A DNA stretch of 64,000 nucleotides from an uncultured delta proteobacterium (lineage in GTDB: Bacteria; Desulfobacterota; Binatia; UBA9968). Shown here in pieces: positions 10,783 to 57,852 of the stretch (positions are counted from its first letter, which is position 1; each line of letters starts with the position of its first letter). The notes under the pieces were generated by a model that had not been told where the DNA came from, did no database searches, and saw only the letters and a list, made by a program, of their open reading frames with translations. The translations under genes and the position numbers were made by a program. Location of the stretch: NCBI GenBank assembly GCA_963840855.1, contig CAWJBB010000081.1, positions 11,367 through 75,366 on the forward strand, written 5' to 3'.

Positions 10783-13545
10783 ATGAACCCTCTGAATGAA
10801 TTGCTCGGACAAGGACAGTCCGTCTGGCTCGACTATATTCGGCGCAATTTGATCCGCAGCGGCGAGCTGAAGCGGATGGTGCAAGAGGATGGCGTCCGCG
10901 GCGTCACCAGTAATCCCACGATCTTTGAGAAGGCCATCGCAGGGAGCACGGACTACGATGAGGCGCTAGCCGTCGCGCTCGCGGGCGATCCCAGCGCCGC
11001 CGTGGAAAAACTCTACGAGCAGTTGGCCATCGAAGATATTCAAATGACCGCCGACGTCCTGCGCCCGGTGTTCGACGAGACGCAAGGGGGAGACGGATAC
11101 GTGAGCCTGGAGGTGTCGCCCCATCTCGCCCACGATACTCAAAGCACGATCAGCGCAGCAAAGCGCTTGAAAGCGGCCGTAAACCGGCCAAATCTGATGA
11201 TCAAGGTGCCGGCGACGCCCGAGGGGATTCCCGCCATCGAAGCGCTCATCGCCGACGGCGTGAGCGTCAACGTGACCTTGATGTTCTCCATAAGCCATTA
11301 CGAGGCCGTGGCGCGCGCCTACATCAAAGGCTTGGAACGCTGCGCCGAGCCGTCCAAGATCGCGTCTGTGGCATCGTTCTTCGTTAGCCGTGTGGATACG
11401 ATGGTGGATCGGGCCCTGGCGAGTTTAGGTACGCCGCAGGCGCAGAGCCTGCTGGGCAAAATCGCCGTCGCCAATTCCAAGCTGGTTTACAACCGGTTCC
11501 GCGAGATCTTTCATGGCGAGGGATTCGCCGCACTGCGCCAGCGCGGTGCCAGAGTGCAAAGACCGCTGTGGGCCAGCACCGGCACAAAAAACCCCGCTTA
11601 CTCCGACGTTCTCTACGTGGAAAATCTGATCGGCCCGGAAACAGTCAACACTATGCCGCCCGAAACGCTCAATGCTTTTAAAAATCATGGCAAAGTGATC
11701 GATAGCTCGGTGCGAGAAAATCTCGATCAGGCGGCGGCGGCGTTAGGACGGCTGAAAGCGCTGGGAATCGATCTCAATATTATCGCCGAAAAGCTACAGC
11801 AAGATGGTGTGGCTGCCTTCGCCGCGTCCTTCGACGCGCTACTTTCAGCGCTGGAGAAAAAGCGACAATCGATGGTTGGCGGAGAGCTAAATCGCCAGGA
11901 GCTGGAGCTAGGAAAGTATCAGGCTCGGGTCCAGCGGCGCCTGAAAAGTTGGCAGGCGGCGGGGTTCGCCGGCCGGATATGGAAAAAAGACTGGACGATC
12001 TGGTCGTCCACGCCGCAACCCGAACTGGCGGACCGCCTTGGCTGGTTGGATTTGCCGCAGAAGATGGCGCAAGACGTCGCTAATCTGGCTGCCTTCGCCG
12101 GCAAGGCAAAGGCCGACGGTATCCGCTATGTCGTGCTTCTCGGTATGGGGGGATCGAGCCTCGCGCCCGAGGTCTTTCAGAAGACTTTCGGCAATGCTCC
12201 GGGTCATCCCGAGCTAGTCATGCTCGACAGCACCCATCCCGGCGCAGTGAAAAGCGTGGAAACGAAAATTGATTTGGCGCAGAGCCTATTTCTAGTTTCG
12301 AGCAAGTCGGGCACGACCACGGAGACCAACTCATTCTTCTTCTACTTCTGGGATAAATTAAAACGGATCAAGGATGATCCCGGCCAGCATTTCGTTGCCA
12401 TCACCGATCCGGGTACCCCGCTGGAGAAGCTCGCCGCGGAAAGAAAATTCCGCGCGACTTTCAATGCGCCGGAAGACATCGGCGGCCGCTATTCCGCCCT
12501 TACGGTATTTGGTTTGGTTCCGGCTGCGCTTATCGGCGTTGATATTGGCGCTCTGCTGGCGCGCGCCCGTCGAATGAGCGAAAGCTGCGGCGCTCTAGTG
12601 GAGGAGAGTCAAAATCCCGCGCTGGCGCTGGGCGCGGCGCTGGGGGAACTGGCGCTGGCAAAGCGCGACAAAGTAACGTTCTTGTGCTCGCCGTCGCTGG
12701 GCGCTTTTCCCGATTGGGTCGAGCAACTGATCGCCGAAAGCACGGGCAAAGAGAAAAAGGGCATCGTGCCGGTGGCCAATGAAGGCGACGGAGCGCCCGA
12801 GAAATATGGCGACGATCGGTTCTTCGTTTACTTGCGCCTGAAGGGTGACGAGAATCACCGCCTTGACCGCCAGGTGGCGGCGCTGCAAGAGAACAGCCAC
12901 CCGGTGGCGCGCATTGATTTGAACGACAAGCTCGATCTCGGCCAGGAGTTTTTCCGGTGGGAATTCGCCGTGGCGGCCGCAGGGGCGGCCATCGGTATCC
13001 ATCCTTTCAATCAGCCCGATGTTCAACTCGCCAAGGATTTGGCCAAGAAAGCGATGAGCGAGAGCGCCGGCGGCAAGAAAGCGGGCGCGATACTGAGAGA
13101 TGAAGTCGCCGTTAGCGATGACGGCCAATTGCGCCAAGCGGTTGCGTCATGGCTGGGCAAGAAAAAGACGCGCGATTATGTCGTTGTCCAGGCATACCTG
13201 ACGCCGTCGCCCGAACACGCCGCAAGATTGCGGGAGGTCTCAAGGATCATCCGCGACCGGCTAGGGGTGGCCACCACGCTCGGTTTTGGCCCGCGCTTTC
13301 TCCATTCCACCGGACAGCTCCACAAAGGAGGGCCGAATTCGGCATTGGTATTACAAATCGTCGATCAGCCTGCCGATAATTTAGCCGTGCCGGAGACGAA
13401 CTATACCTTCGACGCGTTAATTCAAGCTCAAGCGCTAGGCGATTTAACGGCGCTTAAGCAACGGCGGCGGCGCGTGCTCAGAATCAATCTTGGCGGCGAA
13501 ACCTTGAGCGGACTGGATCGGTTAGTGCAGGCAGTCCGGTCTTAA
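10783..13545 (+). CDS. Bifunctional transaldolase / phosphoglucose isomerase
   Basis: N-half: GVTSNPTIF, MIKVPAT, NVTLMFS, RPLWASTG. C-half: GMGGSSL, SSKSGTT, GGRYSAL, EQLIAESTGK, FNQPDV. Confidence 0.93.
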   Translation: MNPLNELLGQGQSVWLDYIRRNLIRSGELKRMVQEDGVRGVTSNPTIFEKAIAGSTDYDEALAVALAGDPSAAVEKLYEQLAIEDIQMTADVLRPVFDETQGGDGYVSLEVSPHLAHDTQSTISAAKRLKAAVNRPNLMIKVPATPEGIPAIEALIADGVSVNVTLMFSISHYEAVARAYIKGLERCAEPSKIASVASFFVSRVDTMVDRALASLGTPQAQSLLGKIAVANSKLVYNRFREIFHGEGFAALRQRGARVQRPLWASTGTKNPAYSDVLYVENLIGPETVNTMPPETLNAFKNHGKVIDSSVRENLDQAAAALGRLKALGIDLNIIAEKLQQDGVAAFAASFDALLSALEKKRQSMVGGELNRQELELGKYQARVQRRLKSWQAAGFAGRIWKKDWTIWSSTPQPELADRLGWLDLPQKMAQDVANLAAFAGKAKADGIRYVVLLGMGGSSLAPEVFQKTFGNAPGHPELVMLDSTHPGAVKSVETKIDLAQSLFLVSSKSGTTTETNSFFFYFWDKLKRIKDDPGQHFVAITDPGTPLEKLAAERKFRATFNAPEDIGGRYSALTVFGLVPAALIGVDIGALLARARRMSESCGALVEESQNPALALGAALGELALAKRDKVTFLCSPSLGAFPDWVEQLIAESTGKEKKGIVPVANEGDGAPEKYGDDRFFVYLRLKGDENHRLDRQVAALQENSHPVARIDLNDKLDLGQEFFRWEFAVAAAGAAIGIHPFNQPDVQLAKDLAKKAMSESAGGKKAGAILRDEVAVSDDGQLRQAVASWLGKKKTRDYVVVQAYLTPSPEHAARLREVSRIIRDRLGVATTLGFGPRFLHSTGQLHKGGPNSALVLQIVDQPADNLAVPETNYTFDALIQAQALGDLTALKQRRRRVLRINLGGETLSGLDRLVQAVRS

Positions 13546-25175: not shown

Positions 25176-25307
25176 CAGCAGGCTGCTGAAAAACTCCCTC
25201 GGAGTCCTTCGACGGGCTCAGGACGAACGGAGGGGGTTGAAATGATTTAGAAAATTCCGTTCATGCCGAGGCTCTCGAAGCATGAAATACCTTTTTTCAA
25301 GAGCCAG
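25176..25307. mobile_element. MITE/REP composite; uninterrupted relative of the element at 53555-55233
   Basis: AGCAGGCTGCTGAAAAACTCCCTCGGAGTCCTTCGAC..GGCTCAGGACGAACGGAGGGG...TTCCGTTCATGC.GAG..CTCGAAGCAT...TTTTTCA aligns with both flanks of the IS110. Confidence 0.8.
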
Positions 25308-52697: not shown

Positions 52698-53508
52698 ATG
52701 CGCTGCGACGAAGCCCAAGAACTGATTACCGCTCGAGTGGATGGCGAGCTGAGCGCCGACGAGCAGCTCGCCATCGAGGCTCACTTGAAAATCTGCGGTC
52801 CGTGTCGCGAGGCCTTCACCGCGGAAAGTTACCTGAAGCAGCAAACCAAATTGGCTGGCCGCGGTATCACAGCGCCGGCTTCATTGCGCCAGGCGATCGA
52901 AGCGAGATTTGCCGGAGGGCGGCCAATTTTCATAGGGAGAAGCAGCGAATCCGTGCGGCGGTGGTTTGGTATCTCCGGCTGGCGGCCGGCGTTTGCGGCG
53001 GCGCTTCTTCTCCTTACAGTAGCTTCGGTCATTTATATGAGATGGCCTTCGCAAAACATCGGCCTTTCAGCACTGGAGACGCACGCGAGTATCCTCAATG
53101 GCAACACTGTTCTCGTCCGGTCTGGCGATCCTGCGGCAATGAGAGACGAGCTGGCCCGGGCAGTGGGTGAGCGTTTTAGGCCGGTAGCTTTCGATCTCTC
53201 TATAATGAAGCTTTACCCGGTTTCCGGCTTCGTTCAGAAAGTCGGTCACCGTGAAGTGCTCGTCACGGTTTATCAAGGCGACGGTCCCACGATTACCTGT
53301 TTCACTTTTCTCGGCAGCGAAGCCGACGCGCCCGACGGCGCGGAGCGGTTCTACGATGCCGACATGCGGCTCGACTTTTATTCGTTCTCGCGCGGCGGGT
53401 GTGAACGGACTCCTGCATCGAGAAGGGGAGGTAATCTGCCTGCTGGTGTCAAAAATGCCGGCCGCCGACCTGCTCGCAATGATTCGTGGAAAATCAGCCC
53501 ACGCGTAA
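52698..53508 (+). CDS. Zinc-binding (HxxxCxxC) transmembrane anti-sigma factor, frameshifted at ~53400
   Basis: AHLKICGPC and one TM helix. After one base is removed the C-terminus continues GVNGLLHREGEVICLLVSKM to a stop at 53508. Confidence 0.8.
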
Positions 53509-53619
53509 ACCGGCAGGCGGTCGGAGTGTTGGAGTACTGGAGCGATGGTTCTAATTAACAGGTTGCTGAAAAACTCTCTCGGAGTCCTTCGACTAGGCTC
53601 AGAGCCTTATATTAGGTCT

Positions 53620-53815
53620 GTTGCAGATTATCATATTGGAGATCATGTTTATGTGACACTGATTTCAAGAGCTTGCTGGAATGAGGACCATCGGGGCCTA
53701 ATCCCTCTCACGAGGATCAAGGGCAGACTGTCCCGTCCAGTAAGAGAACGGATCTGAGGTTCAATAGAAAGTTGTCCCTTTGTTGAGGACTTATATAAGG
53801 CGAACTTTCCGTTCA
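53620..53815 (+). ncRNA. IS110 bridge RNA (5' stem-loop, target-binding loop, donor-binding loop)
   Basis: Guides TCGGGGCCT (53691-53699), AGGGCAG+AC (53720-53728), ATAGAAAGT (53764-53772) and ATATAAG+GC (53793-53801) match the target and donor. Closing stems CTTGCTGGA/TCCAGTAAG and GAACGGA/TCCGTTC. Ends approximate. Confidence 0.85.
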
Positions 53816-53858
53816 TAGCTATTGGAATTGGAAGAACACAACCAAGGAGGAAGAGAGA

Positions 53859-55084
53859 GTGAAACGATACTATGTGGGAGTGGATTGGGCTGATGAATTT
53901 CACCAGGTATGGGTCAGCGATGCCGAGGGCAAGAAAGTAGCCGAGATGAAGGTTGAGCAGAGTCCCAAGGGCATGGGCGAGTTTGGCCGTTGGTTCCATG
54001 AACGTCAGGCAGAACAGATAGAGCTTTGGGCGGCCATCGAGAAGCCCCAGGGGCGGATTGTGGATTTTCTGTTGGACCACGGGGTAGTGGTCTATCCGGT
54101 TAATCCCAAGGCCCTGGACCGGGTCAGGGACCGGTTTCGCATGAGCCAATCCAAGAGCGACTCCTTTGATGCTCATGTGTTGGCGGACTTTGTCAGGACC
54201 GATCATGCTCATTTGCGAGCTCTTGAGCCTAACTCTGCTCCGGCCCAAGAGTTTAAGATGCTCACCCGGGATCACCACCGATTGGGGCGCCATAAGACTC
54301 GGCTCATCAATCAGATCGAGGCAACGCTCAAAGAGTATTACCCTCGCCCCCTGGAGGTTTTCTCTGATCTGGAATCGAAGATTGCGTTGGATTTTCTACC
54401 CAGTATCCGACTCCACGGGCACTGTCTGATCTTACCCGTAGAAAATGGAACCGCTTTGCCAAGCGCGAGCACCATCTCAGTGAGGCGCGCTGTAAAGAGC
54501 TGTGGGAGAAGCTGAACCAGCCGCAGTTGGGAATTCCAGAACACGTGATCAGAGCCAAGGCGCAATTGCTTTTGGTGCTCGTCGCTCAGCTTAAGGCCTT
54601 GGCTCAGGCGGTGGAGAGCTACAGCGAGGAGATCCAACGTTTTTTCGCCTCTATGCCGGCGGCTAAGCTTGCGCAGACACTGCCGGGAGGAAAAAGTGGG
54701 ACCATCGTACCGATGCTTTGGGCCGAGCTGGGCGATGTCAAGAGCCGATGGCAATCCTTTCGTCACCTTCAAGCCGAAGCGGGAGGGGTCCCGGTAACCC
54801 AATCCAGCGGCAAGAGCCATGTCGTACTGTTTCGTTTTGCCTGTAACAAGCTGATGCGATACGCCTCGTACTGGTTGTCGTTTAACTCGCTCAATCGCTG
54901 TGAGTGGGCGAACAAGTACTATCGCGACCAACGGGCGAAAGGACATCATCATCCCCAAGCGCTTAGGGCTTTGGCAGCGAAGTGGTTGAAAATTATTTTC
55001 ATCATGTGGAGAGACGATAAGCCGTACGATGAGAACTATCACTTGGCGAACATCGCCCGTCAGACGATGCGCCAGGCGGCATGA
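53859..55084 (+). CDS. IS110 recombinase (DEDD RuvC-like plus Tnp domain), frameshifted at ~54397
   Basis: YVGVDWA, AIE and KSDSFDA catalytic motifs; C-terminal AGGVPVTQSSGK (catalytic Ser) and ALRALAAKW. Adding one base joins the halves (LDFLTQYPTP). AGGAGG RBS. Confidence 0.92.
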
Positions 55085-55103
55085 AAAAAAATAAACAGGG
55101 GAC

Positions 55104-55126
55104 TTGACAAGTCTCATAGAATGTCT
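55104..55126 (+). promoter_or_regulatory. -35 half of the circle-junction sigma70 promoter (-10 half TATATT at 53608-53613)
   Basis: Joining the ends at the CT core gives TTGACA-17 nt-TATATT. Confidence 0.85.
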
Positions 55127-55262
55127 GCCCTGTTTATCGAAGGGACGAACGGAGGGGAATTGATACCGTTGATGAATTTCCGTTCATGCTGAGACCTCGA
55201 AGCATTCCGAACCGTTTTTCAGCGACCTGCTAACTCACAACACTCCGTATTTTCCGCTCTGA

Positions 55263-55291
55263 TTGACAACCAGTGGTGAATTCCATACAGT
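55263..55291 (+). promoter_or_regulatory. Sigma70-type promoter for tRNA-Gly
   Basis: TTGACA-17 nt-TACAGT ending 26 bp before the tRNA. Confidence 0.65.
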
Positions 55292-55317
55292 TCAATCGCT
55301 TCTCCGCCTAACCCTGA

Positions 55318-55392
<75 letters not shown>

Positions 55393-55857
55393 AACCTCTC
55401 TAAAGTCAATCTCATATCGTTCTACGCGATCAATATATTGGCCCAGTCTTGTCCCATTCAGCGTGACAAAGACCACGAACACCGATTATGACTCGCGCAA
55501 AGTCGCAAAGGGCGCCAAGTTAAGCGGATTGCACCTGGACTAATACCGCAAAAATATTCTCCTCTTTTGGCTGATTCGAGATCTCGAGACGCCGACATAC
55601 CAAACGCGCGGATCATTGTTGACTTGCTTGAGGTACGCCGACGTGACGCAGTCGGGGAGGTGTCTCGATGAATCAGCCGATCACTTCGAAACCATCTTCA
55701 AATCCGCCGCAGGGTTTGCATTCGGACTCTGGCGGAAAGCAAAGCATGCAGAGCTCGGCGCCTTCCATTTCTCTTCCTGAGGTCGGCGCAGTAGAAGCGG
55801 ACAAGTAAGTATGAACACATTCGATTCGTATTAACCGGCGCGCAACGGTCTACGCAA

Positions 55858-56274: not shown

Positions 56275-57852
56275 ATGGCACTAGTGGAACCGAGCGTAAT
56301 GGTCAACTCGATCATGGGCAAGCTCTACAACATCCTTACTAACGGTGATGACACGGTACCTAAGTCCGAGGACAATTTTTTTAGCTGGGCGACGCCTGGC
56401 ATACCCATCGAGCCCGGCGACTTTGAGTTTCTGTCACAAGGACTAACCGGCGTCGTCAAGAAAGCCAAGCTAGACGAGATACGCGGGCAGGGAGCTGAGA
56501 ACGGAAACAATCCGGTGGAGGTGACCCCGCAGATGCTCGAGTCGTTGCGTGCCCAGGACACCGCCGGGCTGTACATGCAGGCGGAGAACTTCTCACGGCT
56601 CGTCGATTTCGTACCCGATCTGGCGAGCACCACGAACAATCAGTTCGCGCAGTTGAGCATCATGAACAACGAGGGAACGTTATCAGAGCGTTACGAGTAT
56701 ATCTTGCGCATGAGCCAGATCATGCAAACAGAGTTGCCCGAGGAAACAAAAAAGAAAATCGAAAAATTTCGCGGCTTGTTAAGTGTCACGAAGACGAAGA
56801 AGAACCTGATCGATGATACCGAAACCCAAGTAACTGAACCCAGCCCTCTGGTAGTCGTTTACAACCAGAAGATGGGCGAATACGAAAATGCGGCTCTGGA
56901 ATACAACTCCCATCGTATCGATGCGCTGACAGCCGATAATGTAAAGGCCGTTCATTACTGGGCCATCAATGCAAACATCCTGCGAAACAAGGTGAAGGCC
57001 GCGATGGCCGATTGGGTGAGTAGTGGCTACAAGAATGAGTATGACCAGATGGCCGCGTTCATTGATCAGGTTATGCAGCGCGATATGGCGTTGCTCAAGC
57101 AGCAATACCGGGACGATTTGGAAAAGGCCAGACTGACCGGTATGGCTTCGGGCAGCGATTTTTACTATACCTCGCTGGTGCCAGGCAATTTCATGAAGGC
57201 GTCCGGTTGGACCGAGTTTGGCTTCAGTTCGTCCGATTTCAACACTTCTTCGAATTCAAGCTACAGTTTTAGCAGGTCTTCTACGAGCGCCGCGGGTGGA
57301 TGGCTGGGTATTTTCGGCGGCGGAGGAACAGCGAGCAGCGCCGGCGGCGAATCACAATCCCATGTTCAGTTCGACAGCGATCATTTCGGTATGAACTTCA
57401 AGATCACGCAAGTGCCGATCGTACGTCCGTGGTACAAGACCGCTTTTTTGGTCAGCAAGCTGTGGCGGTTCGACCAGAACAATCCGGAAGCCAAGGGCGA
57501 TATGGTGAGCGATGGCGGCAAGCCACCGAAAGGTCTAATCCCGGCCTATCCCACTTCGCTGATTTGCATCAAGGATCTCTCGCTGTGCTTCGCCAAGAGC
57601 AGCGGCTTTGAAGATGCTCAATCGAGCTGGAAGCGTTCATCGGCGAGCGGTGGCGGGGCTATCCATTTCGGTCCATTCCATCTCGGTGGCTCGCATAGCC
57701 GCAGTTCAGCTAGCGGACAGCGCTCGTCCCAGTATCACTACGACTCCGAGACGCAGACCATGACCGTGCCCGGTGCGCAAGTGATCGGGTTCAAATGCCA
57801 CATCATGCCGAAGTCTCCCGAGCCGAACAGCAGCATCACTCAGTGGATATAA
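56275..57852 (+). CDS. Uncharacterised protein A (525 aa) with two Ser/Gly-rich segments
   Basis: AAGGAG RBS and a long ORF; collinear similarity to the downstream gene. No family recognised. Confidence 0.85.
   Translation: MALVEPSVMVNSIMGKLYNILTNGDDTVPKSEDNFFSWATPGIPIEPGDFEFLSQGLTGVVKKAKLDEIRGQGAENGNNPVEVTPQMLESLRAQDTAGLYMQAENFSRLVDFVPDLASTTNNQFAQLSIMNNEGTLSERYEYILRMSQIMQTELPEETKKKIEKFRGLLSVTKTKKNLIDDTETQVTEPSPLVVVYNQKMGEYENAALEYNSHRIDALTADNVKAVHYWAINANILRNKVKAAMADWVSSGYKNEYDQMAAFIDQVMQRDMALLKQQYRDDLEKARLTGMASGSDFYYTSLVPGNFMKASGWTEFGFSSSDFNTSSNSSYSFSRSSTSAAGGWLGIFGGGGTASSAGGESQSHVQFDSDHFGMNFKITQVPIVRPWYKTAFLVSKLWRFDQNNPEAKGDMVSDGGKPPKGLIPAYPTSLICIKDLSLCFAKSSGFEDAQSSWKRSSASGGGAIHFGPFHLGGSHSRSSASGQRSSQYHYDSETQTMTVPGAQVIGFKCHIMPKSPEPNSSITQWI

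Follow-up and report, generated by a model that had tools for sequence, protein, structure and literature searches.

IS621, an IS110-group insertion sequence (IS) of Escherichia coli, moves by recombination guided by a bridge RNA, which is encoded in the long left end of the element and has a 5′ stem-loop and two stem-loops with internal loops (Durrant et al. 2024; Hiraizumi et al. 2024). Its DNA target is divided into positions 1-7, a core at positions 8-9, and positions 10-14; just 3′ of the core-complement in each loop lie two-base handshake guides, which, once strands have been exchanged, pair with the other DNA at its positions 6-7 (Hiraizumi et al. 2024). As described by Durrant et al. 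(2024), bridge RNAs are predicted in thousands of IS110 elements (85.7% of those catalogued), with recombinases of 300-460 aa, guides of 8-9 nt and 4-7 nt, an RNA located in the left end, and a 5′ stem-loop preceding two guide loops. Here we analyze a 64,000-nucleotide stretch of DNA (hereafter the window) from an uncultured delta proteobacterium of the class Binatia, positions 11,367 to 75,366 of contig CAWJBB010000081.1 (assembly GCA_963840855.1). We consider it very probable that the 1521-bp IS110-group element at 53606-55126 of this window is one copy of an insertion sequence whose movement, as was shown for IS621, occurs by recombination under the guidance of a bridge RNA. As read from its sequence, its architecture is of the IS621 type in every respect tested.

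The window element and IS621 have in common the CT core, the long left end encoding an RNA with this arrangement of stem-loops, and the same guide strand polarity (the 5′ side of a loop reads as top strand, and the 3′ side, 7 nt with the core, is complementary to it). Both also have handshake guides that fit the non-cognate DNA, a right-end −35 box with a left-end −10 box, insertion into a palindromic repeat (also reported for IS110 elements by Durrant et al. 2024), and DEDD and Ser catalytic residues. IS621 is the best match in the PDB by both sequence and fold. The differences lie in the low identity (18-20% over the Foldseek structural alignment), in the size of the recombinase (408 aa in the window family versus 328 aa in the IS621 chain, with about 80 extra residues between aligned blocks 4-155 and 238-395), and in the donor ends and target, which are others. 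The window family, moreover, comes from soil and groundwater metagenome assemblies labelled Binatia or Deltaproteobacteria and is known here from sequence alone. ISCro4, grouped here with IS622, is equally distant (18% identity).

Elements of the IS1111 group are described as having the same recombinase family and RNA-guided principle, but with the guide RNA in the right end and with subterminal inverted repeats. The window element, by contrast, has a right end of only 42 nt and carries its RNA in a left end of 253 nt; reading of both ends revealed no subterminal inverted repeat of 7-17 bp, although no search for one was made. The element lies within all of the ranges stated by Durrant et al. 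(2024). These include the 4-7 nt range, so the 7-nt right guides that an initial annotation of this DNA had singled out as a distinguishing mark are ordinary, and its estimate of novelty was too high given the thousands of elements for which such RNAs are predicted. The element is a new orthologue within a kind known since 2024, and not a new system.

To place the element among its relatives, we compiled 87 loci: seven from species genomes and the best 80 of 308 confirmed metagenome loci. The former were found with the intact protein in assemblies labelled Deltaproteobacteria, Candidatus Binatia and Syntrophobacteraceae (54-95% identity in full or near-full matches); the latter have 64-94% protein identity. 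Element ends were located by fuzzy patterns, and each RNA was paired with its own flanks. One locus with a broken gene (L010) was left out of the protein alignments, and one whose 5′ part misaligns (L086) out of the left-guide counts and the covariance model.

The element starts and stops with a CT core (53606-53607 and 55125-55126). A left non-coding end longer than the right, with CT at both junctions, is also found in the four other copies in the genome and in the relatives; CT starts 77 of the 79 located left ends. Two relatives have CC instead at the left junction (L022, position 51, and L061, position 312; CCTATATT). The left target half TCAGAGC (positions 1-7; 53599-53605) precedes the element and the right target half GCCCT (positions 10-14; 55127-55131) follows it, giving the target TCAGAGC-CT-GCCCT. 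The left end reads CT-TATAT (53606-53612), in which TATAT is the right donor half, and the right end reads ATAGAATGT-CT (55116-55126), in which ATAGAATGT (55116-55124) is the left donor half. The ends, target and circle donor (ATAGAATGT-CT-TATAT) reconstructed in the initial annotation were all found in place. Terminal inverted repeats were not apparent on reading of the element ends, for which no dedicated search was made.

Each of the two loops of the left-end RNA carries a pair of guides. In the target loop, the left guide TCGGGGC+CT (TCGGGGCCT; 53691-53699) reads as the top strand of the left target half plus core, and would therefore pair with the bottom strand; it is identical to its own flank at five of seven positions, with two G:T wobbles at the others, and matches both core bases. 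The right target guide AGGGC+AG (53720-53726) is the reverse complement of CT+GCCCT and fits its own flank at 7/7 positions. In the donor loop, the left guide ATAGAAAGT (53764-53772) matches the right end ATAGAATGT at eight of nine bases, and the right guide ATATA+AG (53793-53799; 53793-53801 with the handshake GC that follows) is the reverse complement of CT+TATAT (7/7). The handshake bases also follow IS621: the target loop reads AGGGC-AG-AC, whose AC (53727-53728) complements GT, the last two bases of the left donor half and thus non-cognate DNA, while the donor loop reads ATATA-AG-GC, whose GC complements target positions 6-7 (GC). Among related loci, 82 of 83 rows have AC. Of 64 unique pairs, 62 show pairing between the first handshake base of the donor loop and target position 7, which accounts for the C that precedes CT at every site; for the second base and position 6 the count is 26 of 64. 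One relative (L091) has changes both in the handshake base and at target position 7.

A promoter is predicted at the junction of the joined ends, in keeping with the reconstitution of a promoter at the circle junction that Durrant et al. (2024) describe for the IS110 family. The right end contains a −35 box, TTGACA (55104-55109), and TATATT (53608-53613), which overlaps the right donor half, would serve as a −10 box only in the circle: joining the ends through one CT yields TTGACA-17-TATATT, the 17 nt being 55110-55126. Among located ends, TTGACA stands at that distance in 79 of 82 on the right, and TATATT immediately follows CT in 74 of 79 on the left; both counts are partly forced by the fuzzy end-finding patterns.

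The minimum-energy fold of the left end yields both stem-loops with large internal loops. The target-binding stem-loop (loop 1, 53672-53744) is closed by an outer stem of CTTGCTGGA (53672-53680) and TCCAGTAAG (53736-53744) and an inner stem of GGAC (53685-53688) and GTCC (53730-53733), with a terminal hairpin at 53701-53717. The donor-binding stem-loop (loop 2, 53746-53814) has an outer stem of GAACGGA (53746-53752) and TCCGTTC (53808-53814), an inner stem of AGGTTC (53757-53762) and GAACTT (53802-53807), and a terminal hairpin at 53774-53790. A 5′ stem-loop at 53639-53666 is predicted by the single-sequence minimum-energy fold. The stems and guides of both loops lie where the initial annotation had implied, and the fold agrees with them. 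The segment 53668-53820 has a fold energy z-score of −2.51 (3 of 200 shuffles were as stable). Fold energy by itself is weak evidence for structure; it is the comparative data (pair conservation, the covariance model and guide-flank covariation) that place the structure beyond chance.

Across 71 related sequences, the 34 base pairs of the initial annotation are standard pairs in 95.5% of alignment cells, versus 26-49% when the partners are slid; compensatory changes occur in 13 of the 34 pairs, and none of 500 shuffles reached any of the observed measures. A covariance model built from 67 sequences of other assemblies, excluding those of the window's own genome, matched the window once, at 53656-53829 (179.8 bits, E 1.8e-53), and a search of the whole genome returned exactly the five copies described below. 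An RNAalifold consensus that lacked the AGGTTC/GAACTT helix and placed a 3-bp helix in the left donor guide was rejected, the pair-conservation test backing the original structure.

An AAGGAGG ribosome-binding site (53844-53850) lies 8 nt ahead of the GTG start of the recombinase gene, which is split in this assembly, as initially annotated, because one C is missing after 54397. The first part (53859-54515, 218 codons) encodes the DEDD RuvC-like domain and loses the frame after 54397; the second, in the shifted frame (54398-55084, with the listed open reading frame at 54527-55084), encodes the Tnp domain and the conserved Ser. The protein matches PF01548 (DEDD RuvC-like) over profile positions 1-155 of 155 (E 2e-32, 112.6 bits against a cut-off of 29) and PF02371 (Tnp; E 1.7e-05, 25.5 bits against a cut-off of 21.3). 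The NCBIfam equivalog for the IS110 family RNA-guided transposase, NF033542 (cut-off 140 bits), is matched at 153.6 bits by A2, an intact copy in the same genome, and at 133.3 bits, below the cut-off, by the 78% relative B1. A long antisense open frame also runs over the recombinase gene (54338-55117, minus strand, 259 aa; 489 aa in an intact copy, L002 1544-3013) and is probably a by-product of the coding strand.

Residues D9, E61, D101, D104 and S317 are invariant in 57 relatives. D9, D101/D104 and S317 align with D11, D102/D105 and S241 of IS621, and we infer that E61 corresponds to IS621 E60, phmmer placing E61 a few columns off. With phmmer, the only PDB sequence matches were IS621 (8wt6, E 9.1e-08) and ISCro4 (9t56, E 3.5e-07). 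An AlphaFold2 model made from the 57 relatives has a predicted local distance difference test score of 87.2, and its ten best Foldseek matches in the PDB are chains of IS621 (8wt9, 8wt6) and ISCro4 (9t56), with E from 7.5e-11 to 1.6e-09 (3.6e-10 for ISCro4), 18-20% identity and template modelling scores of 0.58-0.61 by target length; TIGR-Tas and Nop5-type proteins come next. The domains, fold, strand logic, core, handshake bases and junction promoter thus support the initial annotation's reading of an IS621-type bridge RNA with a DEDD/Ser recombinase.

Five copies were recovered when the assembly containing the window (7.1 Mb, 93 contigs) was searched at the DNA level: A1 (the window copy), A2 (one base longer), A3 (98% identical), and B1 and B2 (identical copies of a 78% relative). 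Their insertion sites, TCAGAGC-CT-GCCCT, ACATGGC-CT-GCCCT, CGGGAGC-CT-GTCCT, TCGTGGC-CT-GTCCC and TAAGGGC-CT-GCCCT, all differ and have the common form ..GC-CT-GYCC... The right guides (AGGGCAG in A1 and A2, AGGACAG in A3, GGGGCAG in the B copies) are each either a perfect fit to their own right flank or one G:T wobble away from it. Four positions of the 253-nt left end distinguish A3 from A1; two of them fall within the 16 guide bases, and the right guide of A3 complements its own CT-GTCCT flank exactly: this concerted change of guide and flank is a retargeting step seen inside one genome. The right end of B1 lies inside an open reading frame with a TcdB_toxin_midC domain (Pfam E 5.3e-37; L004 2934-4376, minus strand, contig C61), a gene that appears to have been cut by the insertion because the frame runs into the element and ends there.

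The C that A1 lacks after 54397 is present in A2, A3 and every other copy, and A2, A3, B1 and B2 each encode one uninterrupted 408-aa protein. Logan contigs of 4/4 public runs aligned to the region carry the C as well. The break is therefore peculiar either to the A1 copy or to its assembly. The frameshift-repaired enzyme that the initial annotation had called for is not needed, since two intact copies (A2 and A3) lie on two other contigs of the same genome. None of the public-run contigs joins the right end back to the left end, and no circle junction was thus seen, but contigs cannot reveal starts, ends or absence and permit no inference on excision. Contigs of two RNA runs cover parts of the recombinase gene and the flanking repeat and next to none of 53655-53796, and are uninformative on expression. 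Four public-contig joints that skip the element were considered as empty sites and rejected, because other letters stood between the two sides or the runs were aligned at 90% likeness; we take them to be further members of the repeat family. In a public metagenome run (X1), a 1590-nt contig contains the same element with seven differences, the extra C and other flanks, which would make it one more site of insertion, in another sample or strain.

Across the relatives, flanks follow guides; flanks unrelated to the guides, which the initial annotation had named as a refuting outcome, were thus not what other copies showed. In an alignment of 71 distinct left ends, the guide stretches of loop 1 are variable columns and loop 2 is almost invariant; Durrant et al. 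(2024) describe this pattern of a variable target loop and a steady donor loop for the family. Identity between the right guide and its own right flank is 0.84, compared to 0.57 when flanks are permuted (0 of 2000 permutations reached it). This signal is gone at register shifts of 1 or 2, and pairing ends after target position 14, with identity at the next base falling to 0.06. Each of target positions 10-14 is Watson-Crick paired in 55-59 of the 61 unique pairs; 45 pairs are Watson-Crick throughout all five positions, and 54 are Watson-Crick or wobble throughout. Because related loci are not independent, we also counted by guide class: 16 of the 22 distinct right-guide 5-mers occur with an exactly fitting flank of their own, and for 21 no foreign-class flank fits as well.

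Left guides gave a mixed register when all loci were analyzed at once; sorting them by the last guide base separated two subgroups (27 and 44 unique pairs) whose registers differ by one base. In the subgroup of the window element, whose guides end in CT (27 pairs), identity to the flank is 0.76, compared to 0.55 permuted (0 of 2000 permutations reached it), and climbs from 0.44 distally to 1.0 beside the core. Guides of the larger subgroup match the first core base but frequently miss the second (alignment columns 46-56, window 53690-53700). The one-base difference in register may be real or may have been produced in the alignment by an additional base next to the terminal hairpin, and is ambiguous in C-rich targets. 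The guide TCAGAGC, identical to the left flank of the window copy, occurs in four relatives (L022, L025, L026 and L064), three of which (L022, L025 and L064) have the same flank too. Since relatives carry this exact guide, the two G-for-A differences in the A1 guide look like drift that G:T wobble could absorb, in agreement with the initial suggestion that they were wobble-compatible.

The donor guides are steadier. Of 76 loci, 71 have a left donor guide identical to the right end, and the three A copies account for three of the five exceptions; the right donor guide is a perfect match to the left end in 76 of 79. Two-sided donor changes occur in L007, in which the left donor guide and the right end have the same T, and in the L077 group. 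The distribution of the family is patchy: a protein match at E 1e-50 or better is present in 10 of 40 other genomes of the same order (including the unpublished genome G009).

On the model of IS621, the element would leave its site as a circle in which the right and left ends are joined through one CT. The junction would create the TTGACA-17-TATATT promoter, driving an RNA of about 200 nt from the left end. The target loop of this RNA would hold the target, and its donor loop would hold the circle junction by means of ATAGAAAGT and ATATA+AG. A tetramer of the DEDD/Ser recombinase would exchange strands at the CT core, and after the first exchange the handshake dinucleotides AC and GC would pair with the other DNA. 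Because its own gene is split by the one-base deletion, A1 could move only with the enzyme of the two intact copies.

Several observations weigh against this reading. RNA expression, circle formation, catalysis and guide-dependent recombination are steps that we infer for this element by homology. The A1 recombinase gene is broken into open reading frames at 53859-54515 and 54527-55084. The left target guide fits its own sites only in part, with 5, 4 and 4 of 7 Watson-Crick positions plus 2, 1 and 1 wobbles in A1, A2 and A3, so that it is an imperfect match at all three A sites. These mismatches lie away from the core, but IS621 is reported to be poorly tolerant of mismatches. In all three A copies the left donor guide also mismatches the right end (A opposite T, top strand). 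The fold of the whole 253-nt left end is no more stable than those of shuffled sequences (z-score −0.91; 36 of 200 shuffles as stable). A search of 53000-55800 with Rfam 15 at E ≤10, a release for which the inclusion of a bridge RNA family is not established, returned tRNA-Gly and three chance-level matches and no such family. The permutation tests ignore the relatedness of loci, a problem that counting by guide class lessens and does not remove, and the right flank of one relative (L039) does not fit its guide. Lastly, sites similar to the target that the guides encode are not enriched in the genome: 11 lie within one mismatch, the same number as in the control (11), and none is perfect; there is no sign of a reservoir of free targets.

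Some of these points would fit a dead relic, with A1 immobile even when enzyme is supplied in trans: the gene is split by one base, the left guide fits its flank at 5/7 and the left donor guide fits the right end at 8/9, and no perfect unoccupied target exists in the genome. We nevertheless think this rather unlikely. A1 and A2 have identical bridge RNA regions and identical ends, and the reading frame of A2 is intact, leaving the missing C as the sole difference that matters; that deletion could itself be an assembly error, as the C is carried by the contigs of all four public runs. The donor mismatch is common to three A copies at three different sites, and therefore did not block at least two moves. 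In addition, IS621 is reported to accept its RNA in trans. It is scarcely credible, on the other hand, that the split gene is expressed by programmed ribosomal frameshifting, which would make A1 intact as it is. Two overlapping frames do span the whole protein, but A2, A3, B1 and B2 have a single uninterrupted frame of 408 codons, and 84 tabulated loci with a match from residue 1 (A1 set aside) yield 68 distinct stop-free translations of at least 400 aa. What sets A1 apart is one missing C rather than a conserved slippery site, and the two-frame arrangement was not seen to be conserved in other copies.

A further alternative is that the left-end structure is a mere leader controlling expression of the recombinase, with the protein choosing the target and the matches between loops and flanks arising by chance or shared descent. 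The high conservation of the stems and the unremarkable fold energy of the whole left end are compatible with a leader, and the tendency of related elements to occupy related repeats could mimic covariation. However, the 22 distinct right-guide 5-mers go with their own flanks, 21 of them without an equally good foreign flank; a one-base shift of register abolishes the signal; pairing stops exactly after target position 14; and both the strand polarity and the handshake bases follow the IS621 structure. We regard a mere leader as very improbable, since it is already contradicted by the guide-flank covariation.

The clade may, as a tentative suggestion, represent a natural series of one bridge recombinase reprogrammed many times, tolerant of distal wobbles and mismatches in the left guide and of one donor mismatch. 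Its recombinases are of 408 aa, and one donor loop and one pair of ends are common to all 87 loci (soil and groundwater); at least 22 distinct right guides and many left guides occur among the 71 aligned RNAs, and the retargeting of A3 belongs to the series. Were this true and the intact copies active, the family would offer a compact and permissive orthologue, with programming rules already mapped out by its natural guide-target pairs. Some 70 natural pairs from relatives, all with the same donor module, could be used as a ready data set on which guide positions matter. In practical terms the gain is modest: one genome supplies two intact enzyme genes together with three natural guide-target pairs, adding a cleanly decodable orthologue to a system already described and being engineered, and opening no new question. 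For annotation, the reading explains the split 'transposase' open reading frames, the 253 non-coding nucleotides ahead of them and the interruption of a repeat beside tRNA-Gly.

A1 lies between a zf-HC2 anti-sigma gene, accompanied by a gene for an extracytoplasmic function (ECF) sigma factor, and tRNA-Gly(CCC) at 55318-55392. Downstream of the tRNA, a 525-aa open reading frame (56275-57852) has no Pfam match at E 0.001. The element interrupts a palindromic repeat of about 150 nt, whose left half (53556-53605) has 16 matches in the genome and whose right half (55127-55235) has 21. In several uninterrupted copies of the repeat the two halves abut, including one in the window at about 25179-25299. 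ISPpu9 and ISPpu10 of Pseudomonas putida, likened here by description only, are likewise located in repeated palindromic intergenic sequences (repetitive extragenic palindromic (REP) or conserved). The repeat interrupted by A1 begins near GCTGCTGAAAAAC and ends near GTTTTTCAGC.

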